A stretch of DNA of 64,000 bases from Yuukianura sp. NJ FZ-2021 (taxonomy: Eukaryota), in the NCBI GenBank assembly GCA_046563655.1, contig CM102284.1, positions 3,906,001 to 3,970,000 on the forward strand. Direction: 5' to 3'. The notes beneath the pieces were generated by a model that was not told where the DNA came from, ran no database searches, and was given only the letters and a program-made list of their open reading frames with translations. Position 1 is the first letter of the stretch. Every line of letters begins with the position of its first letter. Positions 10,844-56,900 of the stretch are shown in pieces. A program made the position numbers and the translations under genes.

Positions 10844-13800
10844 GAGTGTTTGATTTATGGCTTGTTTTTAGCACGAGCACATTTTTTCCTCAGTTTAATA
10901 AAATTGTACGCAGCAAAAACTTGTCCAATAAAAATCTGTTGTTGATCTGCACAATGTGGAGATCTGCAAATGTCGAGGAAAGATTCAAGTTGTAATTAAG
11001 TAACCATCTGCTTCTGCATCCTAATGTGGGTGCCATTCCATGTCAAATCGTTTCCATCCTACAACAAAGTGGAAAAGTTAGGTAGTACCTAAAAAATTGC
11101 AATCAAGGTGGCAATGGCGTGTGCGTATCAACTTTTTTCTCATTTTTCCAAATTTTTTTGGGGAATTCGTAAAACTCATTTGCTAAAATTCCTCTCTTTT
11201 TTGCAAAATTTCCAAAGATTATTTGGTGTTTCCCGGCAGAGCATAAAAGAAAATTGGTTAAAAAGTTTCGTCTAAATGTCCAAGTTTTTCGACGTTGAAA
11301 GAATCAAAGACTGTTGACCTGCATCGCCGTTTAATAAAAGTTTTTCCCAACTCTTGTGATTTGTGAAGTTTGAGATTCTAAAACATTTTCAAGAAATTAT
11401 GACAAATCCAATCACAAATCGCCAAATCCTCCCTCCTTCGCATAAGTCTACCGCTACCAACCTCTCATCTTTTGTTGCAGTCAGCACATGATAAACGTTT
11501 CAATGTAATTTATTTCACGACATCTCCAGTGCTGACACTTCAATGAGTTAGTTTATCCTAACGGAACTAAACAAAGAAGCACCGTTTGCTGACTCCAAGT
11601 CTGTAATAAATCACAGAAACACACAAACATACAAGTCAAGATCTTTGATTTATTCACAAATTAACAGGACGGAAATAAATATTTTGGATACCAAAAGATT
11701 TTCAATGAATTGGATTTGATTTATGGAACCGTGACCGCAGCGTTGTATTGTATCAAAATTGTATCAAAACCGAATCTAACAATCAACAATTTATCCGAAG
11801 AAATTTTAAAGAAACTGAATGAAACTATTGAAACTTCAAAATTCCTTTGATTTTGAATTTGAAGTTTACGAAATAGAGCTTTTTACTTCTGAAAATGTTT
11901 GGAAGAGTTTCCGGAATTTCTGGGATTTTGAATTTTTGAAAAGTTGAAGTACGCATTGTTAAACTTTATTTTTCTTAATCTTTACACCTTTTCCTTGTTC
12001 AGCTAAAGATGAACTTCAAAGTTTCACTTTGAAGGAAATCCATTGTTGTCTGTGGCTACCGTAGGGCTGAAGGTCCGCGTCAAAGTCAAGGGAGCATCAT
12101 TGTTCCAGGAATAATTCAAATCTTTTCTTCTTCTTTTCAATTGAATCTCTCAACTCTATCACTCAATTTGTCTACTTCAGCAGCCTCATCCCCCAATTCA
12201 ATTCTCATTGTTAGGAAGGCTGGTGGAAGCGTCAGGAATTACGGAAATTGAATCTCACCTGGAATCTTTGAGAAGATTGTTCATGCTTAACCCTGATCTA
12301 CCTCACCACTTCATCATCTCACATCAAGTCAAATTAAATGAAAAGACACGAGTCATCCTCAAACTAACCTATTCAACAGTTCTCTCCATCATCCAATCCT
12401 TAAAACTTAAACTTCAACTTGATTTTTACGTTACTACAAAGTTAGATTTTAGTCAGCGGCTTTAGACTACCCTCAATCTTGAATATTTAGGCGTTTCGAT
12501 CAAAAATATAACTAATTTTCTCCGAGTCGGTATTCGGATTACTGAAAAAAATGAACTTTTCATTTTTGTTTTCATTTTTCGGGTTAGGAAATTTGTATTT
12601 GACGAGCGGATGCGAACTTTTTCCCATGAATTTGGAAATGGGAGTGCCAAAATTTCGTCCGCTGAATGAAATAAGGTGAAAGATTTGGCTCTTCCGTCCT
12701 TTGAAATTCAAAGTAGGGGGAACAGGTTGTTTTGAACAGGAAGTCCATTCATTCTGAAAAAGGCTTTAGGACAGGAGAGGACTTAAGGGCTTCAGTAGCT
12801 CTGGGAAAAGTGGATTTGAAGGGCCTCCAAGATATGTCTTGGAGGCAGGGAAGCTCCACTTTTCTCGACTCTGTCTGTTCCCATGTCAGATGGCAACCGA
12901 AAATTATAAACTTCCAAATTATTCTGGTCGATTTTTCTTGTGCCACAACAGAAGCTCCCTTGGCACACGGGAGCTTAAGGTTACCCACGGTCACACCAAG
13001 GGCTTAAGTCCCACCAGAATTTTAAACAGCCAAAAATGAAATGGATTTGTTCTTTCCCATTCAAAGTTGAAATTGATTTGAGTGTGCTGGTAAAACCTAT
13101 GTTTAAAATAATAAAAATCAAAGTCTATCATCCGATGATTGAAGTTTAAGAACCCGAATGATAAAAAGCGTTCGGTAGCTGGCGACTGTCGTAATTTGGA
13201 AGTGTCAAATCCTTCATCACTTTTAGGCATGGAGCTGCAGATTATGAAATTCCTTTGTCGAGTCTGCTGAGAGTTGGTTAATGGGTGTCAAAGCTGTTTA
13301 GATAAACTGAATCGCTGATCAGCTTCTTTTGTCTTTGATAATGCTGACACGGCGTTTTAGCAGTTCTTGCCTTGAAACTTAAACAATTCTCACGTTAGTA
13401 GAACAAATAGCTCAGCTTAGTTTAGATTAGAATAGCTAGATTTGCTTCATTATAGTTCTGGACTTTGGCAAGTGACGCTTGAATCAACAGTGTGAATCAG
13501 AATTTCGTGTTTAACGTATCTCATAGATCATATTACTTTACAAATTGAATTTATTATAAAGTGTAAATTTATACAAAACATACTTAGAATTAGAATACAT
13601 ATTAAATTTTAACTAATCAAAACGATTGTTGACTTTCTCCAACTGCAACGACTTTCACATAAGGTAAGAATGGTAGAAATATTAGACTAAATTGTCTGGA
13701 TCTTATTTCTGCTCTTCTTATAGACTTACAGTGCAGACATGATTGTGACTACACAAAAAGAAGCACTACTGGTCCCTTCTCGCTCAGCAAAAACAATTTC

Positions 13801-14493
13801 AACCGTCCAAAGGCAAGTTTTAAAAAAAAAGCTCAAAAATTATTATTTTTTGCAAAACTTTTGCAGAAATTTTGTTGAGAAGCCCTATGATTAGTATAAG
13901 GTCTTCAGTTTCCTTGAAATTGCCTGAATCTGCGATCCCTTCCCTGAATTATGAAACTGTAGGGTACTTATTACCCCAAGTATCACTTCATTAACGCCCT
14001 CTTAAGTCTCCCGTAAAGGGCCCACTGTCTGGAGGAGTCTCCTTCCACAAGTGGGGTTAATTTGGCCATATTTTTGGCACTGAGCAACGGCAAATTATCC
14101 ACTTCAACAGCCATTTACGCAGTACTTTAAATTGTTTACGTCTGCTTATTATTACTTCTTTGTTTTCAAAAAGACTTTAATCTTTTTCCTTTTCAAAATT
14201 TGTACTTTCTTCTCGTCCAAATTTTGTATTAATCTTTATAACTAAAACACTTCATGGCTAAAAACAGATGCTGATGATCGATTATAGTGATTGATTTGAC
14301 TGAATTGGAGTTCTCGGTAATTACAATATGAGAATTCCGTATTAATGTTTTTAACTTGACCTTTGACCCGCTCAGAGCAGGTCATATGTAATACTGTTAA
14401 AAAATTAATAAGCTAGCTTGTTCCTACTATCGACACCGCTCAAACAAGAATTTACAATCCAATTTTACACCTTACTACAAGATTGTAGGTCAT

Positions 14494-14878
14494 TGTAGTA
14501 AGTAAGAGATTCGGAAGAATACTGATGATTTATTCAGAGATTCCAGAAATATTTATACTAAGCAAAAAGGTATTGTCCTTAGCTAAGGGTCTGTTTGTAA
14601 CATAATAAAAGGACAGAAAGTATAAAACTGGAATGGAGAGCAAAAACAGTTTTTGGGGTCACCTAATGCTATTGCATGGGTGACCGTCATATGAGGACTT
14701 TTATGACAGTAAAAGTCCTTGCACTTTTAGAATGTCGAAAAGGGAGATTGAAAACAAGTCGGCAGATTCTCAAAAGATTTTAAGAAACTGGATCAAAAAC
14801 AGGATGCTACTTTTATGGTTAGGTCAAGTGACCTGACCTTAAACTTTTTACAAAAACTGAAACTTATTTTTAATTACA
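14494..14878 (-). repeat. 3' LTR (385 bp)
   Basis: Direct repeat of 21527-21910. Starts TGTA and ends TACA. The only difference I see is TTTTTAC vs TTTTGG near 14845. Confidence 0.97.
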
Positions 14879-14890
14879 CGACCCCTCAAT
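14879..14890 (-). promoter_or_regulatory. Polypurine tract overlapping the polyprotein stop codon
   Basis: Minus strand ATTGAGGGGTCG immediately precedes the 3' LTR, in the usual copia TTGAGGGG context. Confidence 0.7.
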
Positions 14891-16493
14891 CTCGATTTTC
14901 CATTTGAATTCCATCGGATGGATCCTGGTTTGCAATCCGGGCGGTGACGTTGATCTTCTTCCGAGTCATCGTGAGGTAGATGAGAATTGCCAAAAATAGA
15001 AGTATCAACGTGAGTAGGGCAATGAAGGCGATGAACCAGGGCGAGTGCTTGCTTCCTTTGTCTTCCATGGTGGCGGCTGGACCGACTGGAATATCCTTGG
15101 TCGCTTTAACCTTTGCGATGATTTCGTCCAAGTTGAATTTCGGTTGAAGATGCCAGTTAGTCTGGAACGTGAAAGATGGCGCCAATGTTTCTTCGTGCTC
15201 CAACTTGAATTCATTTCCTTTGTAGTACTGGTTGTTGATGTGGAAGTTAGAGGCGAGTGGAAGCAAGAAGGTTCCGTTTGGGCATTCCTTTGTGACGGAA
15301 CCAACAGTTATGTTGTTTCCTGCGCAGTAGACGTGGTAGTACTTGTCGAAGTACTTAATTTGAACGAACGACGCGGCATCATTCTCATGTTTCGGATCGC
15401 ATTTTCCCATCGAGAAGAATGAAGACGGGTTTGGAAGTGATCCGCTCGAGACACACTTTGTGTCGGCTAAGTAAACCATATCTCCCTTGTTGACATTTGT
15501 AGTTATGATGCAGTCCTTGTCGGTGGAAATGACAGCGTTCTGTGGTCCGACGTAGTTGATCGTGCATGTCTCGTTTTCTGTTTGATGCATTTGGACAAAA
15601 GCATCGGCTTCCACGAGATGGGCTTGCTTGTTAACGACTGGAACCGTGAAGTCCATGTATAGCTTAGTCTTGTCGTAGGACATCCAGCAGTTCTGCGGAG
15701 TTCCGTGTTGAAGCGGGCAGTCATCTTTGCACGGAAGTGTCAAGTTGAAAAAGTCAAACAAAGGAGCATAGAGCTTCCTTGTACTCCATTTCCTCCTTGC
15801 TTCTTTGATGACTTGATTTCCATAAAGTAGACGGCTTGTGATGTAAGAAATTCCGAAGATGGTGTCTACTTGCGAAGCTTTCAATGTTTGAAAATCTGAT
15901 TCGTGTTCTTTCAGATAGTCAGCCAGCGTTTTCAAATTTTGGTTCAGCTCGTTGATCGCGGTTTCTGCTGCGAGGAGTCGGGCTGCTTCGGCTTCAAGTC
16001 GTTTTTCTTGTTCGGCCATTAAGTTCTGGACGTTCAGCAACTCGTTTTTTGTTTGTACTGCAATGACGGTTCCGGTAATACCGACAGCGATTCCGACAAT
16101 GGCAGTGATGATGATGGCGCCTGCTATTACCATCAGCGTAACGAATCGTTTGTGCTGTCCAAGTTCACGTTTGGATTGATGATGAATCTCGGTTCTTTCG
16201 GTTCCTGGGCAGAGAATTTGGATTTCATCCAAAAATAGCTCTTTGTATATTTTGTTGCATTTTGTTTGTGCTGGTATGACAAGATCCGGGTGCATGGTCG
16301 AGTTATTGAGTAGTTCACAAGGACTGAGAAGCTTTACCAATAGATGTACTTGATTAATTCCACTTGTAACTGGAAGCTTCGAGGGCTTCCAAATCACTGG
16401 TTGTGTCATCATCCATGCGTTTGTTGTGCAAAACAAACACATGATGATGAGCATAGTCACAAGCCGTGACAACTTGCTTGCAACAGGTGGCAT
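14886..16493 (-). other. Env-like domain with class I fusion glycoprotein architecture, fused in frame to Pol
   Basis: Signal-like hydrophobic segment, KR|F site followed by a ~29-aa hydrophobic peptide, heptad repeat, Cys-rich ectodomain with N-x-S/T sequons, C-terminal TM helix and short tail. Confidence 0.8.
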
Positions 16494-19400
16494 AGAAAGT
16501 CCAAGTTTTTCCACCATTGAAGAATGTTTTGTTTTCTGAAGCGTTTTTGTAAAGATGTCTGCTTTTTGTTCCGCTGAGGGAACGTATTTAACTTCAATTG
16601 TCTTGTTAGCGGTAAGTTCGCGGATGTAGTGGAATTTAACATCTATGTGCTTGGTCCGTTTGTGAAATTCTGGATTTTGAGATAGCTTGATGGTACTCTG
16701 GTTGTCGACGAAGATCTGCGTGGGGCTGTCTTGCTTAATTCCAAGTTCTTCAATTTGGGCTCTCAACCAGACTGCTTCTCTTGAAGCTTCGGCTAAAGCA
16801 ATGTATTCGGCTTCTGTTGAGGACATTGCTATTATAGGTTGTTTCACTGATTTCCAGCTGATAAGTGAATTTCCAAGGAAGAAGACGAATCCGCTTGTGG
16901 ACTTTCGATCATTTTTGTCTCCGGCAAAGTCTGAGTCGGAAAATCCGATTAGTTCCAAGGAGCTCCCTCTTTCGTAGCTTATTCCAAAGTTTGGAGTTCC
17001 GGAAAGATAGCGGAGAATGTTCTTTGCTTGATCCCAATGCGTATTGTCATACGCATTGTTGAATTGTGAGAGCTTGGATACAGCGTATGCAATGTCAGGG
17101 CGAGTCAACCGACTTAGGAATAGTAATGCCCCAATAAGTTGTTGAAACGGCAAGTTCTTAGAACATTCCTTCGCGGCTACTAGTTCCACAGTGGGCTGAA
17201 GTGGAGTGGATATGGCTTTACATTCTTGCATATTGAATTGAAGGAGTAACTGCTTCACATATCTTTGCTGGCAGATGAAGTACCCCTGGTCCCATGTAGT
17301 AATTTCGAGACCAACAAAAGTCTCAGCACTGTTGAACGTCAATGTAAAGAATTCCTGAATGCCTTCAACTACTTTAAGTGCCATCTTTTGATCTGGTGCA
17401 GAGATGAGGCAGTCATCTACGTAGAGTCCCAAGTAGATCGGCTGTTTTGTGCTTGAGGCAATGAAGATGGAGTTGTCACTTGGAAGGGCTTTGAATCCAA
17501 GTGAGGACAAAGCTTGCGTGAATTTCTCATTCCAACATCTTGGGGATTGCTTCAGACCGTACAAACTTTTGTTTAGTTTGCACACGACGTTTCCATTGAC
17601 AGTGACACCTTGTGGAACTTCCATGAAAATTTGCTCTTTGAGGTCCCCGTGAAGAAATGCGGTTTTGATGTCCATTTGCAGTAGAGTGTGTTTCAGAGCA
17701 GCTGAGATGGCTAAGATAATTCGAAGCGATTCAAATCTGCATACGGAGGCAAATGTGTCCTCATAGTCGATTCCGTACTGTTGTTGGAATCCTCGAGCGA
17801 CAAGACGAGCTTTGAAGAGCTCAGCGCCATCTGTCCCAGTCTTTATGCGGTAGATCCAGCGGCTATCCAGAGTTTTTGTGTTCACTGGTCTTGGGACAAT
17901 TGTCCATGTCTTGTTAGTCTCATGGCTTTGGATTTCTTCTTTCATTGCTTGAATCCATTGAGCTGAGTCTCCGCTTCTGATTGCTTCATTGTAGTTCGAC
18001 GGAGTCTCTCTCACTTGAGCCATATTAGCTTGGTACTTTGTGGGCGTTTTGAGAGATTTTCGATCTCTTAGTTCCATTTCGAAGGGCTTTTTCTTCTTTC
18101 GAAGGTCAATTTCAACCGATTTGTTGATCGGAACATTCGTAACAAAGTTTCCATCATTGGTTTGGACGCACACTTCCATTGTAGGCGTGGCTTGTATTGC
18201 TGAAAGATCCTCAGGATCCATAGGTTCAGTGTCGGCATTGCTGATATCAAGCTCTTCTTCGTCCTCTTCTTTTACGTCTTCTTCATTACCAAGATCGCTA
18301 TCTGTCTCCTGCTTTGCGTCTTCCTCGGCCTCTTCCTTAGGGAAAACTTCTGATACAGCTGATCTGATGATGACCCGTTGATCCGAGGACTTCTCCTCTT
18401 CGCTAAAAGAAACATTTCTGGCTTCCACGATTTGTCGCGTTTCTGGATTGTATAAACGGTACTGGCCATTTGAATAGCCAACAAAAATCATCTTTTGACT
18501 TTTGGGCTTCCAGACAGATCGTTTGCTTGCTGGGATGTGCATATAAGCTGTGCATCCGAACACACGTAAGTGCGCTAACTTGGGTTTCTTCTTGAAGATT
18601 TGCTCGTAAGCGGTAGTTTCGCCAGATTGCCTATTGATGACTCTGTTTAGGACGTAAACAGAGGTCGCTACTGCTTCTCCCCACAAATGGGTTGGTGTTT
18701 TGAACTCTTGAAGAAGAGTTCTGGCTGCCTCTTTAACTGTGCGGATGTCACGTTCTATTTTCCCGTTGGACTCGGGACAATAAGCTGAAGAAGTTTCGTG
18801 TGTAATTCCGCGATCCGCTAGATGGCTCTGAAGTTCGTCATTGACGAACTCAGTGCCATTATCTGTTCGTAGTGTTTTGAACGTATTTCCGGTTTTGTTC
18901 TCGATGAACTTGATGTAGTCCTGAACGGCTCTTGGTGCTTCTGATTTTTGTTTCAGGAAGTAAACAACTTTGAATCCGGATGCTTCATCTTTCACTAGGA
19001 GGAAGTAGCTTGCACCTCCTAGTGAAGTAACAGCAATTTTTCCACTGAGGTCTGCGTGGGCCATCTCGCCAACAAGACAGCTTCGCTTTGAAGTTGATGA
19101 TGGGAAGGGCTTCCTAGTTTCCTTCCCTAGATGGCAGGCGTCGCAGTTTAACTTTGCTCGTTCGCTGAAGTTCTTGATTCCCGTGGCTGCTTCGTTTTGG
19201 ATCGTGGCTGCAACGTAACTTGAGTTGATATGGCACAAGCGTTTGTGCCATAAGATGCTTTCGTCAATCCTGGATTTAAGTGCATGTTGGGCTTGAAGTG
19301 GCTTGAAGTCCATGATGTAGAGTCCGTTTTGGAAGTAGGCTGTAGGACCGGGCTCTCCGGTGTCTTTTGTGAACATTGTTGCTTGGGCGTTTCTAGTGAT

Positions 19401-20519
19401 AACGTACCCCTTCTGTGCCATAATCGTCTCGGAAAACAGATTCGATGCGTTTGGGATGTAGAGTACTTCCTCAATAATTTTCTTTTCAAATTTGCCACCA
19501 ATTTTTGCTTCTACAAGAATATCACCTTGTCCAAGGGCTTGGACTGGTGAGCCTGACGTTTGGTGAACTTCTTTCTTAATTAAGAAAGGCTTATAAGAAG
19601 TGAAAAAATCTTTATTGCCACAAATGTGTTGGGAGGCTCCGGAATCGGAGTACCATACTAGTTTATCATTACTAGTGGTATTGGCCATTGCTGCATAATG
19701 TGGTGTCTTGTCTTCTCCTTGGGTGATTACGTTGATTTGCTTCATCTGGTTGGCCAGAAGACGTACTTCAGTCTTCATGCGTAGGTACTTCTGAATGTCG
19801 TATCCTGGCGGGATGCCCATCCTTCGCTTTTTGGTGGCTCGGGTCCGCTCTGCTGGTTCTGGATCGGAGTTCTCCGGCTTCAGTGTGCATATGTTCATGA
19901 CGTAGAGGCCATCTTTGCGCGTTGCAGTCATGTCGAAGTCACCATTTTGTCCATAGTACTGAGTACTAAAGTGATTTCTTGAAATTAGATAGCCTTTTGA
20001 TGTCAGGACGCTTTCAGAGATGATGTTGCGGAAGCCTGGCACAAACCAGACGTGGGTTAGCTTGACGTGGCAGAATTGAACATCAGCGTCATCTTGGAAA
20101 TGGCGTGTCGTCTCATTCTGTTTGATGAGGATGTTCACATCTCCGTATCCGGTTGCCTGAGCCTTTTGGCCATTGGCCAATTCTACAGTTCTTCGCTGTG
20201 AAAATCGCTTGAAGTTGAACAGCCAAGCCCGATTCCCCGTCATGTGGTGAGAGGCACCGCTGTCGCTGACCCAGTCCCCTGGATCGACTATTCCACCTGC
20301 CATGAAGGCGGATGCAGATCTGTGCTGCTGTTGGCTCCCTTTTCCGCCATTGTTGCCGCAATGTTGCCCATTGTTGCCGTTTTGCTGTCCATTGTTGCCG
20401 TTCGATGTTGATGGGCTCCGGCATTCCTTCGCCCAGTGGCCACGGCGTCCACATTTCGCACAATTTGTTCTCTTTTGAGCTCCGCAATGTTTGTTTTCTT
20501 CTTTCCATTTGTTTGACAT
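14886..20519 (-). CDS. pol: Copia polyprotein: zinc knuckle, protease x2, integrase, RT, RNase H, env-like glycoprotein
   Basis: CAKCGRRGHWAKEC; DSGAS twice; HKRLCH..CDAC, HADL, RTDNGTEF, SNGKIER; FKARLVARGF, MDIKTAFLHG, SLYGLKQSPRCW, YVDD; FSDSDFAG, SSTEAEY, KHIDVKFH, ADIFTK; then about 535 extra residues. Confidence 0.95.
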   Translation of the reverse strand: MSNKWKEENKHCGAQKRTNCAKCGRRGHWAKECRSPSTSNGNNGQQNGNNGQHCGNNGGKGSQQQHRSASAFMAGGIVDPGDWVSDSGASHHMTGNRAWLFNFKRFSQRRTVELANGQKAQATGYGDVNILIKQNETTRHFQDDADVQFCHVKLTHVWFVPGFRNIISESVLTSKGYLISRNHFSTQYYGQNGDFDMTATRKDGLYVMNICTLKPENSDPEPAERTRATKKRRMGIPPGYDIQKYLRMKTEVRLLANQMKQINVITQGEDKTPHYAAMANTTSNDKLVWYSDSGASQHICGNKDFFTSYKPFLIKKEVHQTSGSPVQALGQGDILVEAKIGGKFEKKIIEEVLYIPNASNLFSETIMAQKGYVITRNAQATMFTKDTGEPGPTAYFQNGLYIMDFKPLQAQHALKSRIDESILWHKRLCHINSSYVAATIQNEAATGIKNFSERAKLNCDACHLGKETRKPFPSSTSKRSCLVGEMAHADLSGKIAVTSLGGASYFLLVKDEASGFKVVYFLKQKSEAPRAVQDYIKFIENKTGNTFKTLRTDNGTEFVNDELQSHLADRGITHETSSAYCPESNGKIERDIRTVKEAARTLLQEFKTPTHLWGEAVATSVYVLNRVINRQSGETTAYEQIFKKKPKLAHLRVFGCTAYMHIPASKRSVWKPKSQKMIFVGYSNGQYRLYNPETRQIVEARNVSFSEEEKSSDQRVIIRSAVSEVFPKEEAEEDAKQETDSDLGNEEDVKEEDEEELDISNADTEPMDPEDLSAIQATPTMEVCVQTNDGNFVTNVPINKSVEIDLRKKKKPFEMELRDRKSLKTPTKYQANMAQVRETPSNYNEAIRSGDSAQWIQAMKEEIQSHETNKTWTIVPRPVNTKTLDSRWIYRIKTGTDGAELFKARLVARGFQQQYGIDYEDTFASVCRFESLRIILAISAALKHTLLQMDIKTAFLHGDLKEQIFMEVPQGVTVNGNVVCKLNKSLYGLKQSPRCWNEKFTQALSSLGFKALPSDNSIFIASSTKQPIYLGLYVDDCLISAPDQKMALKVVEGIQEFFTLTFNSAETFVGLEITTWDQGYFICQQRYVKQLLLQFNMQECKAISTPLQPTVELVAAKECSKNLPFQQLIGALLFLSRLTRPDIAYAVSKLSQFNNAYDNTHWDQAKNILRYLSGTPNFGISYERGSSLELIGFSDSDFAGDKNDRKSTSGFVFFLGNSLISWKSVKQPIIAMSSTEAEYIALAEASREAVWLRAQIEELGIKQDSPTQIFVDNQSTIKLSQNPEFHKRTKHIDVKFHYIRELTANKTIEVKYVPSAEQKADIFTKTLQKTKHSSMVEKLGLSMPPVASKLSRLVTMLIIMCLFCTTNAWMMTQPVIWKPSKLPVTSGINQVHLLVKLLSPCELLNNSTMHPDLVIPAQTKCNKIYKELFLDEIQILCPGTERTEIHHQSKRELGQHKRFVTLMVIAGAIIITAIVGIAVGITGTVIAVQTKNELLNVQNLMAEQEKRLEAEAARLLAAETAINELNQNLKTLADYLKEHESDFQTLKASQVDTIFGISYITSRLLYGNQVIKEARRKWSTRKLYAPLFDFFNLTLPCKDDCPLQHGTPQNCWMSYDKTKLYMDFTVPVVNKQAHLVEADAFVQMHQTENETCTINYVGPQNAVISTDKDCIITTNVNKGDMVYLADTKCVSSGSLPNPSSFFSMGKCDPKHENDAASFVQIKYFDKYYHVYCAGNNITVGSVTKECPNGTFLLPLASNFHINNQYYKGNEFKLEHEETLAPSFTFQTNWHLQPKFNLDEIIAKVKATKDIPVGPAATMEDKGSKHSPWFIAFIALLTLILLFLAILIYLTMTRKKINVTARIANQDPSDGIQMENRD

Positions 20520-21151
20520 TGGAAGGCCTTGGAGGTGCTGGAAGCCGCTTGTGGCTTATTGTTGTGCTCCAGGTCTTCCTGCTTCAGACGGGCGAGCAGG
20601 TTCGGCATTGTCTGCTCAGCTTGAGTGACGCTAAACCACGCCTTGCGGAATCCCATGTACTTGTCTGGAAGCGCGGTGACAAGTTTCGTGATGACCACAG
20701 AGTCATCCACTGGACTGCCTATGTCTTTGAGGCTTCTGGAGAGCTTCTCCAGATCCTCAAATGCTTCTTGGAGAGTTTGATTTTCCTTGATTTTGTAGTT
20801 AAGGAAGGCTGAGAGCGTAAGCTGTTTGTTGAGCTGGCTGGCGTCGGAGTGGATGCTTTTAAGGCGATCCACTATCTCCTTGGACGTTCCACAGCTGATC
20901 ACGTGGCTTGTGTTTCGTTCATCAAGAGTTGGGATGACAAGAGCCTGGGCTTCATTGTCCAGTTCATCCCATGCTGGCTGGTCCTGGGCTTCAGCGGGGC
21001 GTGGCTTCGACCCATCGACGACGCCCATCAACTTGGCTGCTTTCAATATGGCGGTTATCTGGAACCGCCACACCTCGTAGTTTTTGTCATTAAGCTTCAC
21101 GACATGCGTAATGTCGACTTTCTTCTTGGTTGTTGTTGCTGGCGTAGACAT
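20288..21151 (-). CDS. gag: Copia Gag (N-terminal part); the reading frame shifts near 20474, before the zinc knuckle
   Basis: KLNDKNYEVWRFQITAIL...GVVDGS..RP...WDELDNEAQALV and KLVTALPDKY are typical copia Gag (UBN2-like) motifs. Confidence 0.9.
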   Translation of the reverse strand: MSTPATTTKKKVDITHVVKLNDKNYEVWRFQITAILKAAKLMGVVDGSKPRPAEAQDQPAWDELDNEAQALVIPTLDERNTSHVISCGTSKEIVDRLKSIHSDASQLNKQLTLSAFLNYKIKENQTLQEAFEDLEKLSRSLKDIGSPVDDSVVITKLVTALPDKYMGFRKAWFSVTQAEQTMPNLLARLKQEDLEHNNKPQAASSTSKAFQCQTNGKKKTNIAELKREQIVRNVDAVATGRRNAGAHQHRTATMDSKTATMGNIAATMAEKGANSSTDLHPPSWQVE

Positions 21152-21516
21152 TTCTTATTGTTTTAAATATTGTTCTTATGAAATTTAGAACAATAGGTGG
21201 GCTCCGGACACCTTTGACCACAGATACAACTCCGTGTCCAACGTTCCTCTCTAAGTCTCTAAGTCGACCCGTAGGATTGAGATGATAAGTGTCACTTAGT
21301 TACTTGGTGCACAACTAGCCAATTTCACCCTCCACGCGGGAGGAGCTTTTGACTGTATGCGTAACTTGGACAACAAATCTTTTCTCTGCGACTTGTTGAG
21401 CAATTAGAGTACAACTGTCAGACTTTGAGTGTACCCGAGCTTTCGGATGAAGAGAGCTTTCCCTATTGTTCAAAGATCTTGACTTTAAACGTTATTGTTT
21501 TTAGACAACCTCCTTA

Positions 21517-21526
21517 TCTGCTACCA
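21517..21526 (-). promoter_or_regulatory. Primer-binding site complementary to the 3' end of initiator tRNA-Met
   Basis: Minus strand reads TGGTAGCAGA directly after the LTR's CA, complementary to the metazoan tRNA-iMet 3' end (...UCUGCUACCA). Confidence 0.85.
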
Positions 21527-21910
21527 TGTAGTAAGTAAGAGATTCGGAAGAATACTGATGATTTATTCAGAGATTCCAGAAATATTTATACTAAGCAAAA
21601 AGGTATTGTCCTTAGCTAAGGGTCTGTTTGTAACATAATAAAAGGACAGAAAGTATAAAACTGGAATGGAGAGCAAAAACAGTTTTTGGGGTCACCTAAT
21701 GCTATTGCATGGGTGACCGTCATATGAGGACTTTTATGACAGTAAAAGTCCTTGCACTTTTAGAATGTCGAAAAGGGAGATTGAAAACAAGTCGGCAGAT
21801 TCTCAAAAGATTTTAAGAAACTGGATCAAAAACAGGATGCTACTTTTATGGTTAGGTCAAGTGACCTGACCTTAAACTTTTGGAAAAACTGAAACTTATT
21901 TTTAATTACA
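21527..21910 (-). repeat. 5' LTR (384 bp)
   Basis: Direct repeat of 14494-14878. On the minus strand it is followed immediately by the PBS. Confidence 0.97.
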
Positions 21911-22753
21911 GTCATTTTAAGCCATTGCATTCTATGTATATAGAATATCCGATCCCATTTTTCTGTTTTTTTTTATATTTGAAAATATTTGAAATTAAAT
22001 TAACAATAACAGCCCTTAAGGGGTACCGGATAGTAAATGTGAATTTAATGTGCCACTGAATTTGTCAGCATCTTCCTGCCCTTTGATGTCTCTTTTCTGT
22101 GGCGCTGGAAAGTACAATAGGACAGAAGGGCCCTCATGCCTCATCTTCCTGTCCAAAAAATAATTAGGCAAGGCACAAGGGCTGCAGTTATTATTGGAAT
22201 TAAGGGCCCCTCAACCCTTTCCCTCTTGTCCAGAGTGCCCTTTGATGTCCTGGACGACTGCCCTTCCCTAGACACTTTCTGAGTTTCTTTGGAAAGTAAA
22301 GTGTCCGACGGGATCCTTCGGAAGGTGTGCCTCTCCTCATCTTATTAAAAATTAACACAGGGGCCCTTCAAGTCCTTTATTACTTTGATGGGAGGTGATG
22401 GCGTTGGTGATGGGACGCAGATTACCAGGAGATTCAAAATTACTCTGTAGGCTTAACCTAGGGACTAGGGACCCTTCAAGATTCTCTTTCAGATTTTCAG
22501 ATCCCTGACCTAGGAGATGATGAGACGCGGCTGAAGACAAGTCAAGGTCATACGGACAGAAGATCAAGATACGTTGAACTCGGAATAGTGTTCGGAATTC
22601 TAGAGTTTTGGAAAAATTAACGTAAAACCATCTAACTAGAAGCCAGCTTATCGCCGAGAGGTAGCTATTGAAATAATTTTGTCAAATATTCCAAATGAGA
22701 CTGCCGGGAGTTTTTTAAATGATGTCGAGATTGGTCACCGGAATTAAAGGAGC

Positions 22754-22778
22754 GAGAGAGAGAGAGAGAGAGAGAGAG
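22754..22778. repeat. (GA)n microsatellite
   Basis: About 12 GA units. Confidence 0.9.
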
Positions 22779-25700
22779 TTGTTAAGTTTTTGGTTTGTGA
22801 GAAAGTTTGACAAGGAGGATGATGGATGGCAGGGATCCCTTGAAGGGCCCATAATGATCCAATCCAAGTGACGGAAACGCCGGATTTTTTGGGAAATTGA
22901 AGGTTTGAAACTGTGTACATACAATTTTCAACCCCATCGCAAACGTCCCCCGTCTCCTTTAATTGTTCCCTTCAACAAATTAGCCAACAAAAAACCAACA
23001 CGGCACACCAATCATTATTGGAGAAAATTTCTCCAAGGGTCCTCTGTTAGGTTAGTCCAGGATCCCTTATTCTGGATTCTGGAAGGTAAAGGAACAGGGG
23101 GCCCTTGGAAACTGTATTATGATGAACTTTGACAACGTAATGGCATACATCCCATGTTTTTCCAAGGCCAAAGACCTCATCATCAAAGCATTCACTTTCA
23201 TCAACCCAAAAAAGAGGAATCAAGGGCCCCCTTCCACAATTAGAAAAAATCTACTACCCTTGTATTGGCTTCTGTTTTGAAATTTTAACCAAAAATTTGA
23301 AAGTTTAACCAGCACTATTTTGTGCGGAAATTAGATTTTTCAAGTTAGGTTTTAATCTTTAAAATTGGCTTTTTAGTCAATTTTGACTTAATAACAGCCT
23401 ACATTTACTTTTTTCTTGTTTAGTGTCTCCCATTAACCTTTAGGTGTTTGATTTATGAAATTTGATACACAGGATGAATCGTTTTGAAAATTTAAATCTT
23501 ACACCAAAAGTGTTTAATTATAAGGTAAGGTTTGGCTGGTGTAATTTGGAACCATTAGACACTGGGAGGTCAAAATTCAAAAGATTCAAACAGAATTCAA
23601 AGGGGGTAAGTGGAGTAGCCTCATTGATTTCCATTGTCTTCCCACAATCATTTTCCGGTCGTTAGACGGTAGTCGTAAAAAGAAATCGTTTCTAAGCAAC
23701 TCAGCGTCTAACGGAAGAAACAAAAGAATCCAGTCGTCGGCAGTTGAAAGTAGAAGCGTTTTCATATTGATGCTGACGAAGATGAATCAGCAGACATTTG
23801 ATCCACTTCTTTACACCGTGAAATTGTTCACTTTCCTCATCATTTCCTACAGTCTGATTAAGACACAAGATTAACGGGAATCTTGACTCATGACACAAAG
23901 CTCAAAGGATTACAAACTTCTCTTTCAAATTTAGAAAGTTTCGAATCTTTTTCATTTGAAAGTTTTTTTTCTAAATTTTTTTTTCTAAATCTTGGGCTGT
24001 TTTTGTTTTTTCCGACTTCTTCATTTACTTGAGGCGGAAGTGGAGCAGTTGCGCAGACAAATGTACTTCCTGAAGGTGTTGTTGACTAAGAAGATGAGAA
24101 TTTTTGTAAAGAAAAGCTTTGTACTTTTCATAAGGAAGCCCTGCACCTGGAGAGGGCCCTTCAGGAAGTACTTAATATGCTACCTTCACCGCCTGACGCA
24201 CGCTTCTGACAGGCTTTTTCCTTCCCGCTTCCAGATTTCATCAAACAATGAAACCACTTTAAACGAAAGTTTTCGAAATTTAAAAATTTTAGATTATGAC
24301 GAAATGCAAGTTTCTTTTTTATGTTTTTGGTTTTTCAGAAACAAAAAAAGTGGAGAAATGACAAACGACAGCGGGAAGATTGTGTGAAAGTGACACCGGA
24401 GCTTGACGCAGTGCATCCCGCAGCTACTTATCCTTCATCTACGCACCCCTCCTGCGTCTCGTCCACACAATTTGGAATTGTCAACGCAAGTGACACTTTT
24501 CTGAAAGGGGGATGTCTTATTACAGCCACAACTTGGACATGAGGTCATTCATCTTCTGCTTCTGCTTACCAAATGACCCCGGGGTCAAATGAGATCAAAC
24601 CATACCGGTTTTTGATACAAGGCTCTGTTAAAAAATCTTCAAAGCTTCTGCTAGATTCTCAAAAAATTAACTTCTCTGGATTCTTTTTGTTTTACGATTT
24701 TATCCAGACTCATAATTCAAAAAACTTCTGAAAATTCTGGTTGATGATGTAACCGCAACTGGAAATGGAATTCACCAGGCCCTTAAACCTTCCAAGGGCC
24801 CCTGCAGAAGCCTGCTGCGACCGAAGTACTTTGGACCTTGAAATAAAATTTTGGATTTAGATGTCAACCTGTTCACTTGTTACCACAAAGTATGCACAAA
24901 GTTACATGCACTTTTACGACGACTGCGAAAGACTGTGGAGTTTAAGGGCTCCCAACCAATAGTTGTTGTCGTAACTGCTCCTTGGCATGCTGTTTTAATT
25001 AATTTTGTTTCTAAGGAGACTTTTAGTGGAGACCCTTGTCTGACTTTTGACATGACAGTGACCCTTGACACGTACTTAGGAGTCCCTTGTAACTAAATAT
25101 CTGTTGATCACGTATGGACAGTTTACGAATGGCAGAGTGCATTCATCTTACCAGTTTCCAGTCGGCGACACATCTCTTCTCGTATATTTTTCACTTTGCA
25201 TCTATTTTTTTCAAGGAATTTGACGCATGTGGAGGAAGACGCAAGTTGATGCGTTAATTAATGGGTAGGTTCTAATCACAGATGAAATTGTTTACACTCG
25301 ACTGTGCATGATGCATGCACAAAAGTGTTGTACAGAAACAAAGGATCTAATCGAGACAATGGCAGGAGACAGTGGGATTGCATGCAAAAATGTTGAAATT
25401 CAAGTGGATTTCCTCCTTTTGTGTCCATTTACTACAGGAGCCCTTCAGCATCTTGTCTTTTTCTTACCTGTTCAAATTAAGAAAAAAGTTTTCTGTAAAA
25501 AGAAGCCCTTAAGGGCCCTATGTGAATTCTTTTTGCGTGTGCCGTCAGTGTTGGGTCTTAATTGGTGGGGAGGGAGGCGTTTCCTTTGAAATTGAGATCA
25601 GGTCCTCCTCCTGTGCGTAATCAACATTGCGTGAATTGGCAAACGAATCGAACATTTGGATCAAGCGGAAAAGACGGCTCCCTTGATCACTCCAAGACTT

Positions 25701-48322: not shown

Positions 48323-48790
48323 CAATCCAATAGCATTTTATGAACTTGAAATTTATTCCACGCTGCAATTTAAATTGTATAACTATGAATTTAATGAATT
48401 CACAATTTAGAAAAATACTTAAAAATTCATGCAAACTGCACAAATCGCTAAGCATTTACAAAATGGAATAGAAAAGAAATTGTTTAAGTGCTGCTGCTGT
48501 CATGACAACTGAAAAATTAGGAACTTATTGAAACCGAGTATCGTTATAACTTCTTTTCGTCGGCCACTTTTGATCAGTTGCGTTTCCAGTAAACTCAGAC
48601 CCGCGCCAAGTGCTTGCTCACAGCAGAAATTCATTTAGTGCGCCTTTAGTAGTATTTTTAGCTTTATTTGGTAAGTCACTCTCTTCATAGTGCTGACTTT
48701 TTACTTCTCGGTGTCAGAGTTCAGTGGGCGATGCCTTAAATAGTTTTGGTTGCAGTTTTTGGAATTATAGGAACCAAAGGAATTGCGGAC

Positions 48791-50763
48791 ATGTCAAGGT
48801 CATCGTACACAGACGGGGACGATGACACGGAGAACGAAGTGGATGACGGAAATTGCCGGATCTTGCGTGGCCCTAAGTCACCGGCCGACTACATGGCCAT
48901 GCTGGAGTGTCCAGTGTGCTACGAACTGCTTCTTCCGCCAATCTACCCCTGTATTCATGGTCATAACATTTGTAAAAGATGCAGAGAGCGTGTCACTGGC
49001 TGTCCAATATGTCGCTCCGACATGTCGGAGTGTCGTAACATTTTCTTGGAAAATCTTCTCGACTACTGTTGGGTAAGTTATCGTACAACTGCATTCTTCT
49101 TTCTTTTCATTTACAGAACTGAAAATTTTGGTCCAAAATTTTAGTTTTTTAACAAAATTTTAACTTAGCTGTCCTGTAAGTACAACCCGATGGGTTGCAA
49201 GAATCACTATCATGGAGGTGACATGCTGGGTCACGAAGCGGAGTGTGATTATCGGTAAGGAGATTACAAAAATTCAACGTTTTTCCATTATTCAGTTTTT
49301 CAAAAACTTTTCTTTTGTTGAATTTCAAAATTTTGAAATTGTTTGCAGTCCAATTTTCTGCTTGTGGTGCAATCATCTTGTACGGTATGACGAGTATCTC
49401 CAGCACTTGAACAAGGAGAAGCAAGTTCAGATTGTGGGTGAAGCTGGATATCGTTCTGCGTTTGACATGGACGAGGATTCGCTGGAGAGAGGTCAGAGAA
49501 ACATAATTTCAATGATTTCGAAATTTTGGTTTTCAATTTCAAAATTTTGAAATCTGAATCGTTATTAGCTTGTCATCACATTTGGCACTCTGCCTGGTTG
49601 AAGTACTGCGACAACGACTTTTTCCTGCACATGGACAGCGATGGCAAAGTTTGGTGGATCTTTTTGTCTGTATTTGGACCAAAAGAAATCGCCAAAGACT
49701 GGAACTGCGAACTTATCGTCTTCAATGCGGAAAAGGTTAAAAAAGAACGGTTTAAAAAACTTTGTGTACAAGAAAAAACACGAGAATTTTGAAATTTTAG
49801 AACGTATCAGTCAGTTACAATGGTCCAGTGAACCCGTTTCGAAACCACGGAAGTGACGCTGAGAAACTTGGCTACTGTTTGTCCCTAACCCGCAGCACAG
49901 TCAAGTTCTTCGTTCGCTCAGCCTCTCTCGAAGTTGCAGTCAAAATTTTTCGAGGCGGCTCCACTGCGCTGGAACGACAAAGTCCACTACCAGCTAGAGG
50001 CGGAATGTGCCTGTCTTCAGGCGGATCTCATGCAGAACCGCAGGTCACTAACAATAATCAGCAGCCTGGGAGCCCCAGTGACGTCGTTTACCAAAACGTG
50101 GCCATCCCCATGTTTGCTGTTGTGTCACACGTATCTTCGGACAGCTCACCGAACTCAAGTGACAGTCAAGATCACGGATCAAGTTCTGGAGACTCCACAA
50201 ATACTAGTCCGGAGCAGCCACGTACTAACAATGCAATTGGTAATCACACTGCAGCAGGGTCTCAGACTGACGACGACGTTCGTGGCAGTCGTCGTGACTC
50301 CATGGGGTACATCATCGGTGAGCGACTCAGCAGTTTCACACGGAGTCCCAGCGATCCTGCAGGTCGTGACCATGTTGGGAGTCCGCCAGAGGTCAACTTC
50401 TACAATTCCCAAATGCCATATCCGGTAGTGTCGATTCCACGAATCGAACCAGGTCCACGCAGCATTTTACCTCGACCAGCACGGTTCGATCGAATCATCA
50501 GTGGAGTCGTCCTTGATCATCAATACGGTTCAACTAACTTCCCACCCAATCAGGTTCTGAATCCACGTCTGGAAGGACCTCCGTCGGTAGATGCTCGTTA
50601 CAACACACCACCACCACGCATGCCATTGCGCTTTCCAGCGCCAATTCAATTCCCTAATCCACCACAGAATCCGCGTCATCGTTTCCCGCCACCTCCATCT
50701 CCGGGACAACAAAATCTTCGGCCATTTTCGCCGTCAAACGCACCGTTACCGCAAGGTGGATGA
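48791..50763 (+). CDS. Siah/Sina-like RING E3 ubiquitin ligase with a long Ser/Pro-rich C-terminal extension
   Basis: LECPVCYELLLPPIYPCIHGHNICKRCRERVTGCPICR...RNIFLE, then C-KY-xxx-GC...H...C zinc finger and a beta-rich SINA-like region. Confidence 0.8.
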
Positions 50764-52594: not shown

Positions 52595-53910
52595 TCACTT
52601 GAGTTTGGACTTGTCTGTTGGATGAATTGGGTGTTGAAGGTGGGACAAATCAGGCGGATTCTGTTCAAATCCCTTCAGTTCCTCTAGCCCTTGAACTGCT
52701 ACTGCCCAGAGGTCAGGGCACTTGACCTTGTACCCCTCGTACCACCCCTTGATCAGGGGAAATGCACTCAAGGTCTCTTCGAACTCAGCCATGGCCTCCA
52801 AACACACCAAGTCCATCACCAGCGGCAAATCAGCAATCGTCACGTTTTCTAAATATCAAGAAGCTCAGAAATTCAAATATATTATAAAACTATTAATTTA
52901 TATATTAAAAACTCTATTGCCAACAGCTAACCTCCAACTACGTACGGCGTCCCTCCGCGTTTCAAATATTCTTCAAAAACTTTCAGCGAACGAACAAGCT
53001 TCTTTAAATTTTCTTCCGTCCTTGGATACGCGTAGAACAAAGGCAAAAGCTGTAAATTGAAAAAAAGCAATTGGGAATCAATTAAAATCGATACTTTTAA
53101 TCCATAGTTTAACTAAATTGTTTGTATTTTCTTCATTTTTAGATTGATTGCTCCAGATTTGGAAATGTAATACCATGTAATCCAGAATACTTCTGTAGAG
53201 TGTAGTTAAGTGGAAGGCAAGGCGTTGGTTCACAAGTGCGCGTTCTTTTGGATCCGTCGGGTAAAAAGTTTCATCCTTCTTGTACTTGTCCCCCAAATAT
53301 TGCAAAATTGCAACGCTAATTAAGTAGTATCAGAAAGTAGCAAAAAATAGTCTCGGATGATTTCAAAATTTCACTTTTCTTTCAAGGTTTTTGCAAATTA
53401 CCTCTCATTTAGCGTGAAGTCATTGTCAACCAACAGTGGAACTTCGCCCTGAGGATTTTTCTGAAATACAAAAAGACCAAAATTTACTGCAAAAAACGTA
53501 TCGCTGTTACTAAAACGCAAAAAAAAACAAAGCAAAAGCAAACATCTGAAAAATTTTATATCACACTATTTCCCAAAAAAATCAAGGTCGGCTAAACAAA
53601 TCTCGAGTTTTTTCCACACATAAACTTCCTGAGTCATCAAAAACCGTGACAGAACAAAAATTTGGCTTGGACACGCGAAATGCCAATGGTCATCATGCAA
53701 AATTGAAATTTGAAATTCAAACTCAAAATTTCAATTGGAAATTTAAAATTCAGAATTTTCTTTTAGTACCTCCAAATATTCTGGAGTAAGATGCTCTCCA
53801 GCAGCAAAATCGACGTTGATCAGTTCATATTCGATTTCAAGGTACTTAAGGGCCATTCGCACAGCAAGTGTCGGCGGACTATCAGAAACGCTGTACAGCT
53901 TAAGTCCCAT
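52595..53910 (-). CDS. Glutathione S-transferase resembling the insect unclassified GSTu1 / gfzf GST domain
   Basis: MGLKLYSVSDSPPTLAVRMALKYL, NPQGEVP, LNE|S, QYLGDKY, VNQRLAF, TIADL and the characteristic C-terminal FEQNPPDLSHLQHPIHP. Confidence 0.9.
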
Positions 53911-56900
53911 GATATCTTGCCGTTTAATATAGATTGGACCAGTGGAATATGGAGTGACCTCTGACCCCGCGGAGTCTTGGAAGTGACCTGTAGGTGACCT
54001 TTTCAGTTTAGACGAATGTCTTGAAGCGTCGTTCTTAATGTAGCGGTGAGTCAACTGTGGCGGTGGAGGATCCGTTGCCTTTTCGTCTGTTGGAGCGGAA
54101 CTGTCTGAAATGGATCCAATTTTTCCACGGTGATGTGCTGCCAACAATTCTTTACAGGGTGGACATGCCTTGAGCTTCGAAGCACAACCCCCCACTGTAA
54201 CAACAATTGAAATTCTAAACTTCATTGTTAACATACTAATCGTTTAAGCCTTGAGAGGAATTGGTAAGGTTAATGAACGGACACGCCCTTCTTTAAATCT
54301 GCAGAAACTTTTCAATCCCACCATTGATTTTCTTAAAGCTAACAGAAAAACGGATTTGGAGCAGAATTTTAAGCAAAACATGTCAATAAAGAGCTTTCGA
54401 TCGGAAAAATATGAATTATGAGTTTAAGCGGTGTTGGAATTCAATTCAGGTTTTCAATCAAAGTTTCCTCTTTCTCTGTAAAAATTGAACTAACCGAAAT
54501 GGTTTTCAATAATTCAAACCAGCTTTGCCATTGGCGAGTCCAGTTAATTTATGGATTCAGAAAACTTCTGAAAATTGGTCTACTTAAATCAAACAATTTC
54601 CAAAAATTGGAAAAAGGAGTGACCACAAACCATCCTTCTTGTTTTGGCTTGTTCAAAATTCATAGTTTTGCTTTCACTTACTTTTAGGTATTTGTAACCG
54701 ATATGCTGAATTTTGTCAATATTTGTTTAGATATCCACCAACTAGACTTGGCCAAAAATTGTTCAAATCGAAAAGAAAGTATGAACACGAAAATTCAATT
54801 TTGATGCGTTAGCCGTAGCACTGTTTGAAAGAGAAAGTTTGTGTAACTTGCAAGGAGAAATTGCAGAAACTCTGCACTACCTGAGTTGAAATTTGGTGGC
54901 AGACTGATATGGCATGTTTCCAAAACTTTCTTCGGTTTTTATTTTGAAAGCAGAATGTGTGTTATTTTCCGGAGTGGAAAAATCCTTGGTGGTTTGTTCA
55001 CATTTGACGTGACCTTTGAACTTTCTCCTCCCAAAACCATTTAAGGTTCCAGTCGAGAAACTATTATAACAAATCCCTCATTTACCAAAAACCTTTGATG
55101 AAAAAACACAATTCCCATGGAGTAAGTTCAACCATTTTCCATATTGCACGGAATATTGATCTCTACATGCTAAAACACTTAATTCCGGGGAGTTAAATCA
55201 AAGGTCAAAGGCATTAGACGTTTACAGCGACTTTTGACAAATGACTACCAACCGACACGACAACCCTCTCATGCTACGTTCCGCTGCATTCCTTCTTCTC
55301 TTGTTTGGGAACAGTAAAAAAAATCCAGGAAAGCAAGCGTGACACCAAAGGGAAAGCTAACTTTCTCCAATTTATTTATTTTTTCAGTTTTTTTGACAAG
55401 GATTTGCGTGTGTTGTGTCCTGCTGACCCAAATTAAACAATTGATTGAAATGAAAGGGGAGCGTCTTAGATGCAATGATTTTTGGAATTAGTACTACGCT
55501 TATTACGCTTTGTTTGTCAAGCTATTAACAGGCTGTTCCAGTGTTCCGGAAAAGTGGACAAAGTAATCAATGCGTTGGTGGATTCTATTGTGCCTGAATT
55601 AAAAATTCGGGTTATCCAATATCTAATTTTCGACAATTAATTGCGAAAAATAGCGCTCAGCGTAGTGCTGTAGAACTACGTTTCACTAGCACTTCCGGAT
55701 TCTTTGAACCTTTCGTGTATCCGTAGCCCAAGGAAAATTTTTTGGCATTTCTTTTTGTTCGTTTTCAATAGATTTGTGCTAAAAAGCACGAAAAAGGCTT
55801 CCTGAACACCTCCTGGAAGTAACAGAAGTAACACAATACAATACTGTACTGTGTCTAATATTTGAAAAATTTTGCCACAAGATGCACTGACTGTTGTTCA
55901 TAAAAGTCACACGCCATTTTAATCTAAATGCAGAACGTAATGGTTAGGAAACATGCGAAAATGAAAACGAAGGACTGTGTAACATGCAACTCACAGCTAT
56001 CAATTCCAAGTGATGGCAATTTATCTACTTAATTTCTACAAGAATCTTCGTTTTGACACTCTTTAAGTACATAATTGAAGGAAAACCGCTTCAATTTCAG
56101 TTGTTTTCGGTTTACTTTTGTTGCCATTAATTTGGCTCATCCAACTCTGCAAAATTCAACATCCCAAGCCCAAAATCAAAGAATTCTTGAATGGTGTAAC
56201 GATAAAACAGACAAACATGTACAATTTCACAGGTCACGTGACGTAATTGACCTGACCTTGTAGCATTTTGTGTTTCATGTTATGATGGATTGAGATTCTA
56301 ATGCTGTGTAATAGGTTTACAAGGTCATCGGTTTTCAAGCCTAATCGAAATCTCTTTAAAAACACCATTTCGGGAGGCGTTACGTAGTTAGAATGTGGAT
56401 GACAAAATAGAGACTGCATTTAAACAGTTTTTTTTAACCCAGGTTTGGCTTCTGGCTACAGGGTTTAAATTTCAAGGTTGTCCACATTGTAAATGTCGTT
56501 TAGTAGTAACTAATTATGTGAAACACCAAAGGTTGTGTTCTTTTAGACTCACATTTGTGATACAATAACAATGATTTGAGAAACTCGTCAGAACACGTAT
56601 AGGAAAGAGAGTTGTATTGCGGCTTAATACAACAGGCAACTTCTAATTAGTGAAATAGTAAATAGTAAGTATCCATTGGCGTAACCTATGCTTCCAATAT
56701 GGAGAGAACCTCTGCCAGTTTCTGCCTCGTCACTGTGAACTCTTTTCTGGAGAGAAGAAGTACTGCCCCTGGAGAAGAAGTTGAGACGTCAAGTTGAAGG
56801 TGCTACGTTGGTAAAAGATAAAATTAAAATCTGACCTACCACACGAACACAGATGCAAAATAAAAATCAACACTTACGAAGATCCGTTGTGATGCCAAAA

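Follow-up and report, generated by a model that had tools for sequence, protein, structure and literature searches.

Retroelement proteases are textbook one-domain enzymes that act as homodimers. A covalent link between the two subunits is tolerated, as in the known engineered tethered dimers of the human immunodeficiency virus 1 (HIV-1) protease, and the two-lobed pepsins reportedly arose, according to Tang and co-workers in 1978, from a one-lobe ancestor that was duplicated and fused. Here we analysed 64,000 nucleotides of the Yuukianura sp. NJ FZ-2021 assembly (contig CM102284.1; the whole stretch is called the window), in which the minus strand holds a complete 7.4-kb long terminal repeat (LTR) retroelement of the Ty1/copia type. 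Its polyprotein carries two diverged protease domains, PR1 and PR2, in tandem ahead of the integrase, and an envelope-like (env-like) part after the ribonuclease H (RNase H). Tandem duplication of the protease module was confirmed. The duplication is real and has been retained in an env-bearing copia family of recent activity, and one deeply diverged relative has it too; the mechanism proposed below for the pair is plausible. The segments concerned are:

19893..20273, minus strand: PR1, retropepsin domain, the upstream and faster-evolving copy; D-S-G at 20256-20264, 11-amino-acid (aa) insert at 20085-20117
19674..19892, minus strand: basic linker of 73 aa, without a Pfam family, with two predicted helices
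19305..19655, minus strand: PR2, retropepsin domain, the canonical copy, directly upstream of the integrase; D-S-G at 19638-19646

Each domain shares its predicted fold and the D-S/T-G loop with the retropepsins (clan AA), such as the proteases of xenotropic murine leukemia virus-related virus (XMRV) and HIV-1. Natural retropepsins, however, are single-domain homodimers, whereas the element has two diverged domains in one chain, and any pair of them would be asymmetric. The pepsin-like A1 proteases resemble the window pair in having two homologous lobes in one chain with a catalytic Asp in each, but they possess a packed inter-lobe sheet where the window pair has a long flexible linker. Nor is there A1 membership by sequence: no pepsin-like A1 family was among the Pfam hits for PR1, PR2 or the whole fragment. 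Another duplicated enzyme is described in PMC4408406, namely the dual RNase H found in retroviruses and in certain Ty3/gypsy elements, and PMC12440569 presents the retroviral 'tether' as an older RNase H copy whose activity has been lost. As at this locus, a duplicated enzymatic domain is kept in pol and one copy diverges faster; the domain and the element superfamily are different, and unlike the tether case the window family keeps the catalytic residue in both copies. Sireviruses (SIRE-1) are also copia-type with an env-like coding part downstream of pol, but they have plant hosts and an env-like open reading frame of unclear origin (PMC5408684), whereas the env part of the window element may resemble F-type viral fusion proteins and its relatives include an arthropod record. 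The same paper reports rotifer elements of Ty3/gypsy type with a paramyxovirus-like env and regards the env-like frames of plant copia elements as uncertain. In the literature searched, which excluded subscription journals, supplements and Repbase, we found no description of tandem proteases in LTR elements, nor any of an F-type env in copia elements of animals.

An initial annotation of the window, made from its letters, had proposed a tandem duplication of the protease domain with both catalytic Asp residues kept despite high divergence, and this was upheld. In a Pfam scan of the whole polyprotein, the copia protease domain (PF22936 Pol_BBD) matched twice, with an expectation value (E) of 2.2e-38. 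Scanned alone, PR1 (19893-20303) scored 69.4 bits (E 3.3e-19) and PR2 (19302-19673) 75.3 bits (E 4.7e-21), both well above the curated cut-off of 27 bits. The D-S-G residues lie exactly where the annotation had placed them, at residues 98-100 (window 20264-20256) in PR1 and 304-306 (19646-19638) in PR2, as part of a DSGAS motif at residues 98-102 and 304-308, and all of its quoted motifs are present (VELANG, ATGYGDV, VWFVPG, NIISES, KGY and GLYVM in PR1; ALGQGDI, VLYIP, SNLFSE, KGY and GLYIM in PR2). Compared by BLASTP, the two domains were identical at 37/124 positions (30%; E 5e-20). A profile built from 24 single-protease relatives gave 109.8 bits for PR1 and 137.3 bits for PR2, while the best of 100 shuffles gave 7.2.

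The linker, expected to be basic and about 70 aa long, has 73 residues, with 13 K+R, 8 D+E and an isoelectric point (pI) of 9.66; no Pfam family matched the piece between PR1 and PR2. The domains themselves differ in pI (9.17 for PR1, 6.11 for PR2). An A-[FA]-M-A motif precedes each of them (20298-20309 and 19683-19694, minus strand), 8 and 9 residues ahead of a conserved Trp. Of 9 relatives compared, 3 have this motif ahead of their single protease and others have looser forms of it; it may mark a domain boundary or a processing site.

A search of the PDB by sequence with the protease fragment gave a chance-level match only, and the folds were examined by prediction. When PR1 was modelled alone with its own alignment, the mean predicted local distance difference test score (pLDDT) was 89.4 and the predicted template modelling score (pTM) 0.82, with the order of strands and helix seen in PR2; the 11-aa insert formed a low-confidence loop. 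PR2 reached a pLDDT of 95-98 in a single-chain AlphaFold model of PR1, linker and PR2. With the models of both domains, the best PDB match found by Foldseek was XMRV protease (probability 1.00), followed by HIV proteases; the XMRV matches had weak E values (2.9e-3 and 4.8e-3) and a template modelling score on the target of 0.53-0.55. Both domains are thus modelled with the retropepsin fold.

To see how widely the two-protease layout occurs, 1.84 billion representatives were searched exhaustively by HMMER with the double-protease fragment (336 aa) as query. There were 1507 proteins with E<=0.001, and the best 150 were examined. The best-matching stretch lay in PR2 for 140 of these 150, with identity up to 48%. 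Rescanning the 150 with a single-protease profile, HMMER filters off, gave two or more protease hits in 16. In 11 of the 16, other domains separated the hits, by 201 aa or more, and these proteins are concatenated elements; one more, P0065, has gag between its two protease hits. Tandem proteases were found in the other four. Three are plant gene models: P0056 (the fern Adiantum), whose halves are identical at 119/128 positions, P0142 (Tanacetum), with 45/55, and P0101 (Tanacetum), with four protease hits. Unlike the 30%-identical window pair, these are probably gene-model artefacts or very recent repeats.

The fourth, P0012, is a 1533-aa polyprotein from a metagenome contig, identical to the window protein at 534/1510 positions (35%). 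Its order is PR, a linker of ~25 aa, PR, integrase, reverse transcriptase (RT), RNase H and the start of a homologous env part; no zinc knuckle was found in it. Thus it shares with the window element the tandem proteases ahead of the integrase and the env in frame after RNase H, but differs in its overall sequence, in its linker (~25 aa versus 73) and in its upstream domain, which reads D-S-A and has lost a conserved Pro. Word-indexed searches added no further case: the window's double-protease region against proteins of near length (1203 candidates) gave none with E<=0.001, and the P0012 region recovered only P0012 itself at near lengths (919 candidates) and nothing at shorter lengths (946 candidates). 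With an alignment of the window protein and P0012, a scan of metagenome DNA found one RT-RNase H locus (L001), without the protease region, and a scan of viral contigs found none.

Five sequencing runs also contained the stretch: organism A contributed four, all from a single sample, and organism B one, from a different study. Contigs of four runs (X1-X3 and X5, the last being organism B) were compared over window 13000-23400. A single X1 contig covered 19170-20599 and departed from the window by one letter and one gap; a single X2 contig covered 18988-20225 with 0 differences. Organism B contigs covered 19170-19649 with 6 differences and 19719-20515 with 21; among the pieces listed for organism B, none bridged 19650-19718, the 69 bases between the domains. 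None of the 9 joints listed skipped a single protease domain. Organism A may be the window's own source and hence not independent support; organism B is independent. The annotation had allowed that the arrangement might be a one-off product confined to this copy, but because the contigs of two organisms and P0012 share both domains, the layout is no one-off.

Two side observations concern the same contigs. One X3 contig skips 1113 bases (19203-20317, a multiple of three), which would remove both proteases; this joint is weak (depth 11.8, 24 letters on the shorter side). In organism B, summed depth was ~150-356 over RT, RNase H and the start of env (15429-18204) and only 11-27 over integrase, both proteases and gag (18552-21674), with loose ends near 17530-17563. 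This contrast hints at a more abundant related family, or at deletion derivatives, with a different 5' half.

The family is, or until recently was, active, judging from the near-identity of the LTRs, an empty insertion site and raised depth. The two LTRs, aligned over 385 columns, differ by 2 mismatches and 1 gap (3/385 columns). Contigs of X1, X2 and X5 (3 of the 4 runs) hold an empty-site joint of 14488 to 21911, at which 6 letters fit either side, and the insertion is therefore polymorphic, or absent in the X1, X2 and X5 samples. In X1 the summed depth over the element was ~5-7x that of the flanks, a depth figure that is not a copy number. Coding differences between copies were counted among the 40 listed of 401 differences: 27 of 30 were synonymous (23 of the 30 lay in gag, 22 of them synonymous, and 7 in the RT-to-env part), and therefore the copies descend from lineages under purifying selection. 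Over 14556-14818 of the 3' LTR, the X3 and X5 contigs have 21 other letters in place of 261 bases, which indicates an LTR variant in the family.

Constraint on the two domains was compared at 25 columns, each conserved in at least 70% of the 24 single proteases. PR1 keeps the consensus at 17 of the 25 and PR2 at 20; the residues kept in PR1 include D, S, G, G-x-G, V, P, N, S and K-G. Between the window element and P0012, the downstream domains are identical at 45/109 positions and the upstream domains at 32/123, while the linkers share a 3-residue match only; for the other domains, identity is 46% (integrase), 42% (RT) and 48% (RNase H). Because similarity of the linker has been lost between the lineages while that of PR1 persists, PR1 appears to be under constraint. 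Taken from these comparisons, the upstream domain seems constrained, unlike the linker, yet less so than the downstream domain. Identity between PR2 and the single proteases of relatives is 40-48%, and the end branch on the protease tree is 1.37 for PR1 and 0.48 for PR2, in keeping with PR2 as the canonical copy and PR1 as the faster evolving one.

Whether this reflects one duplication or two was addressed with trees. On a protease tree (28 rows, 124 columns), PR1 joined the upstream domain of P0012 (PR-A) with support of 87/82. Column 96 holds I in PR1 and in the P0012 upstream domain, and L in 24/24 single proteases, in PR2 and in the P0012 downstream domain; this shared derived residue supports a common origin of PR1 and the P0012 upstream domain. 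On a pol tree from integrase to RNase H (22 rows, 954 columns, P0033 left out), the env-bearing elements formed one clade (100*), and in an approximately unbiased (AU) test the window element and P0012 as sisters were not rejected (p 0.38). Telling against a single origin, that tree set the window element among single-protease members, with P0012 just outside the group (Shimodaira-Hasegawa-like approximate likelihood ratio test, 90). Furthermore, PR1 and the P0012 upstream domain are the two longest branches of the protease tree, and PR1 and PR2 as sisters were not rejected by the AU test (p 0.263). On these comparisons one old duplication is tentatively favoured over two.

The key steps of the mechanism we propose are as follows. 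In a sub-lineage of env-carrying Ty1/copia elements, the protease module was duplicated in tandem and both copies have been retained. PR2 occupies the canonical site just upstream of the integrase and keeps pace in its evolution with the rest of pol, and PR1, between the zinc knuckle and PR2, evolves faster with its fold and catalytic Asp kept. PR1 would then pair with PR2, inside one polyprotein or across two, in the manner of retropepsin subunits, with D98 and D304 together making one asymmetric active site. Such a natural tethered dimer would work like a two-lobed pepsin without sequence kinship to pepsins. That PR1 and PR2 pair to make one asymmetric site is, on the models, the best reading of the data, though a tentative one; that the whole is a natural single-chain retropepsin of two diverged halves, with one asymmetric site and with activation freed from polyprotein dimerisation, is quite possible, though we would not call it probable. 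The data show both domains and that they are conserved, that the layout recurs and that the family was recently active; from them we infer the pairing, catalysis by PR1 and a benefit of the arrangement.

The structural evidence for this pairing is a two-chain fold test. PR2 (residues 290-420) and PR1 (85-221) scored 0.76, whereas the best of the three controls had 0.00; the mark used was attained by 51 of 78 solved complexes and by 2 of 108 mismatched pairs. The runs concurred on at least 86% of contacts, and the pLDDT of the partner was at least 79. The predicted interface comprises PR1 96-103 (VSDSGASH) and PR2 302-308 (YSDSGAS), with strands 190-194 paired with 385-390, and in the model this is the geometry of a retropepsin dimer. 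The annotation had suggested a single-chain pseudo-dimer. A PR1:PR2 pair with touching D-S-G loops is now predicted, although the two-chain test cannot tell this hetero-pair from the homo-pairs PR2:PR2 and PR1:PR1.

Further points weigh against the proposed pairing and against catalysis by PR1. The pass in the two-chain test may reflect memory of, or likeness to, solved retropepsin homodimers, and the model of PR1 alone was driven by an alignment of ordinary proteases. In the single-chain model, residues 1-93 were unfolded (pLDDT <50) and the pTM was 0.45; that model is uninformative on intramolecular packing because MAFFT set nearly all homologue rows on PR2. The upstream domain of P0012, in which the Asp is kept, reads D-S-A rather than D-S-G, has E at the conserved P and keeps the consensus at 13 of the 25 columns, and it may be losing its catalytic features, or be under relaxed catalytic constraint. 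Finally, none of the 40 of 401 differences listed between copies lies within the protease region, which hence yields no direct ratio of nonsynonymous to synonymous rates (dN/dS) for PR1.

A possible but more doubtful alternative to PR1:PR2 pairing is that PR2 alone works, as a homodimer, and that PR1 is a retained, catalytically secondary paralogue. PR1 may in that case be a spacer in the structure, may regulate when activation occurs by entering weak or inactive hetero-pairs, or may dock substrates. The closeness of PR2 to the proteases of relatives (40-48% identity, and the best stretch for 140 of the best 150 of 1507 proteins) fits this alternative, and so do the longer end branch of PR1 (1.37 versus 0.48) with its 11-aa insert, and the D-S-A, lost Pro and 13/25 columns of the P0012 upstream domain. 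There is also a precedent in the retroviral 'tether' (PMC12440569). However, PR1 of the window family keeps the full D-S-G-A-S and 17 of the 25 columns, the Asp persists even in the upstream domain of P0012, and the fold test pairs PR1 with PR2 at the active-site loops.

It is unlikely that PR1 and PR2 are separate enzymes, each released and forming its own homodimer with a different specificity or timing. The A-[FA]-M-A motif ahead of each domain might delimit that unit or be where it is cut, and the difference in charge (pI 9.17 versus 6.11) would suit distinct enzymes, but cleavage at the motif is putative only, and neither domain of P0012 has the motif ahead of it.

The annotation had also suggested that the second protease might be tied to processing of the Pol-Env junction in the fused polyprotein. 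The part concerned is:

14889..16493, minus strand: env-like part of ~535 aa, in frame with pol and downstream of RNase H

It has its own Met, a signal-like hydrophobic segment, a basic site just ahead of a hydrophobic stretch of 33 residues, a C-terminal membrane anchor, 14 Cys and 6 N-x-S/T sites. Fourteen relatives, among them P0012, have a homologous C-terminal part, with 26-41% identity. No Pfam family reached its cut-off for this part, and a PDB sequence search with it gave a chance-level match only. The nearest Atlas clusters were of PF00523 Fusion_gly (paramyxovirus-type; score 0.97) with some Baculo_F, at a recognition value of 1678, below 2300, so the resemblance to F-type viral fusion proteins is a lead only.

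Besides P0012, 13 of these env-bearing relatives (P0009, P0022, P0026, P0027, P0033, P0038, P0043, P0045, P0046, P0058, P0068, P0077 and P0081) were scanned with filters off and domain E up to 10, and each gave exactly one protease hit; P0033 comes from the springtail Folsomia candida (OXA56474.1, 'Copia protein, partial'), and the other 12 are metagenome polyproteins. Two proteases were accordingly present in 2 of the 15 env-bearing elements examined, the window element and P0012. The single-protease relatives on the pol tree, which P0033 was not part of, fall in the clade of the window element. Like it, all 13 run from gag through knuckle, protease, integrase, RT and RNase H to env, but they have exactly one protease, with gag in the pol frame, where the window element has two proteases and a separate gag frame. 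Both double-protease elements do have env in frame with pol, as selection for Pol-Env processing would predict. Since 13 of 13 other env-bearing relatives manage with one protease, and the env part has its own Met, signal-like segment and basic site before the hydrophobic segment, a second protease is not needed for the Pol-Env fusion. Selection for this task is very unlikely, and the suggested tie was not supported. Judging by its sequence features, env may instead be processed by host signal peptidase and a furin-like enzyme.

That the pair has no function and stems from a single recombination event, from a nested insertion or from faulty assembly, as the artefactual or very recent look of the plant models P0056, P0142 and P0101 might suggest, is hardly credible, given copies only 30% identical in a frame open for 1889 aa, both domains in independent contigs of two organisms, and the same layout in P0012 at 35% identity.

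The other features of the element, of which the 64-kb window holds a single copy, are:

21911..21915 (upstream copy) and 14489-14493 (downstream copy), minus strand: target-site duplication ATGAC, 5 bp
21527..21910, minus strand: 5' LTR (TG...CA), 384 nucleotides, aligned with the 3' LTR
21517..21526, minus strand: primer-binding-site-like TGGTAGCAGA, adjoining the 5' LTR
20288..21154, minus strand: gag frame (Retrotran_gag_2, Pfam PF14223, E 9.5e-27), homologous part to near 20477
20472..20476, minus strand: frame switch from gag to pol in this copy, between the conserved IAEL and RTNCxxCG motifs
20418..20462, minus strand: CCHC zinc knuckle (nucleocapsid), zf-CCHC 20.5 bits against a cut-off of 20.8
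18390..19325, minus strand: integrase (gag_pre-integrs, rve, SH3-like), by Pfam
17196-17915, minus strand: reverse transcriptase RVT_2, by Pfam, E 6.9e-61
16521..17915, minus strand: RT and RNase H region, the RNase H region 42-60% identical to relatives
14494..14878, minus strand: 3' LTR (TG...CA), 385 nucleotides, with a purine-rich stretch directly upstream

The pol-env frame runs from 20555 to 14886 (minus strand) and is open for 1889 aa, with the Pfam order CCHC, two Pol_BBD, gag_pre-integrs, rve, SH3_retrovirus and RVT_2. This domain order, the copia-type RT, the TG...CA LTRs, the 5-bp duplication and the copia-type gag with CCHC place the element in Ty1/copia (Pseudoviridae). Though zf-CCHC falls just below its cut-off, the pattern CX2CX4HX4C is readable in the knuckle, where relatives align with 38-66% identity. 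We take TGGTAGCAGA to be complementary to the 3' end of the initiator tRNA-Met.

In the window copy, gag and pol lie in different frames: ...IAEL belongs to the frame of gag, RTNCxxCG... to that of pol. A programmed gag/pol frameshift was considered and dropped as unlikely, because the contigs of 4/4 runs, which differ from the window by one letter in length at 20472-20476, and the relatives read gag and pol in a single frame. The window copy is either defective at 20472-20476 or mis-assembled at a short homopolymer.

Host exons lie beside the element in the window, read from translations without a family search. They resemble cytochrome P450 (912-2030, plus strand), a SINA-type RING protein (48740-49144, plus strand) and glutathione S-transferase (53743-54243, minus strand), the last presumably arthropod-like.

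If the proposed pairing is true, the element would be a living example, in a still-mobile element, of the duplication-and-fusion step proposed for the two-lobed pepsins. The element offers, with its two diverged protease domains in one chain, a natural system in which to ask whether a diverged pair can act as an asymmetric single-chain enzyme, how one copy drifts while its partner holds the canonical role, and whether covalent linkage alters the timing of polyprotein processing, which depends on dimerisation in retroviruses. It also brings out a little-described clade of animal-associated copia elements that carry a possibly F-type env-like part in the pol frame.

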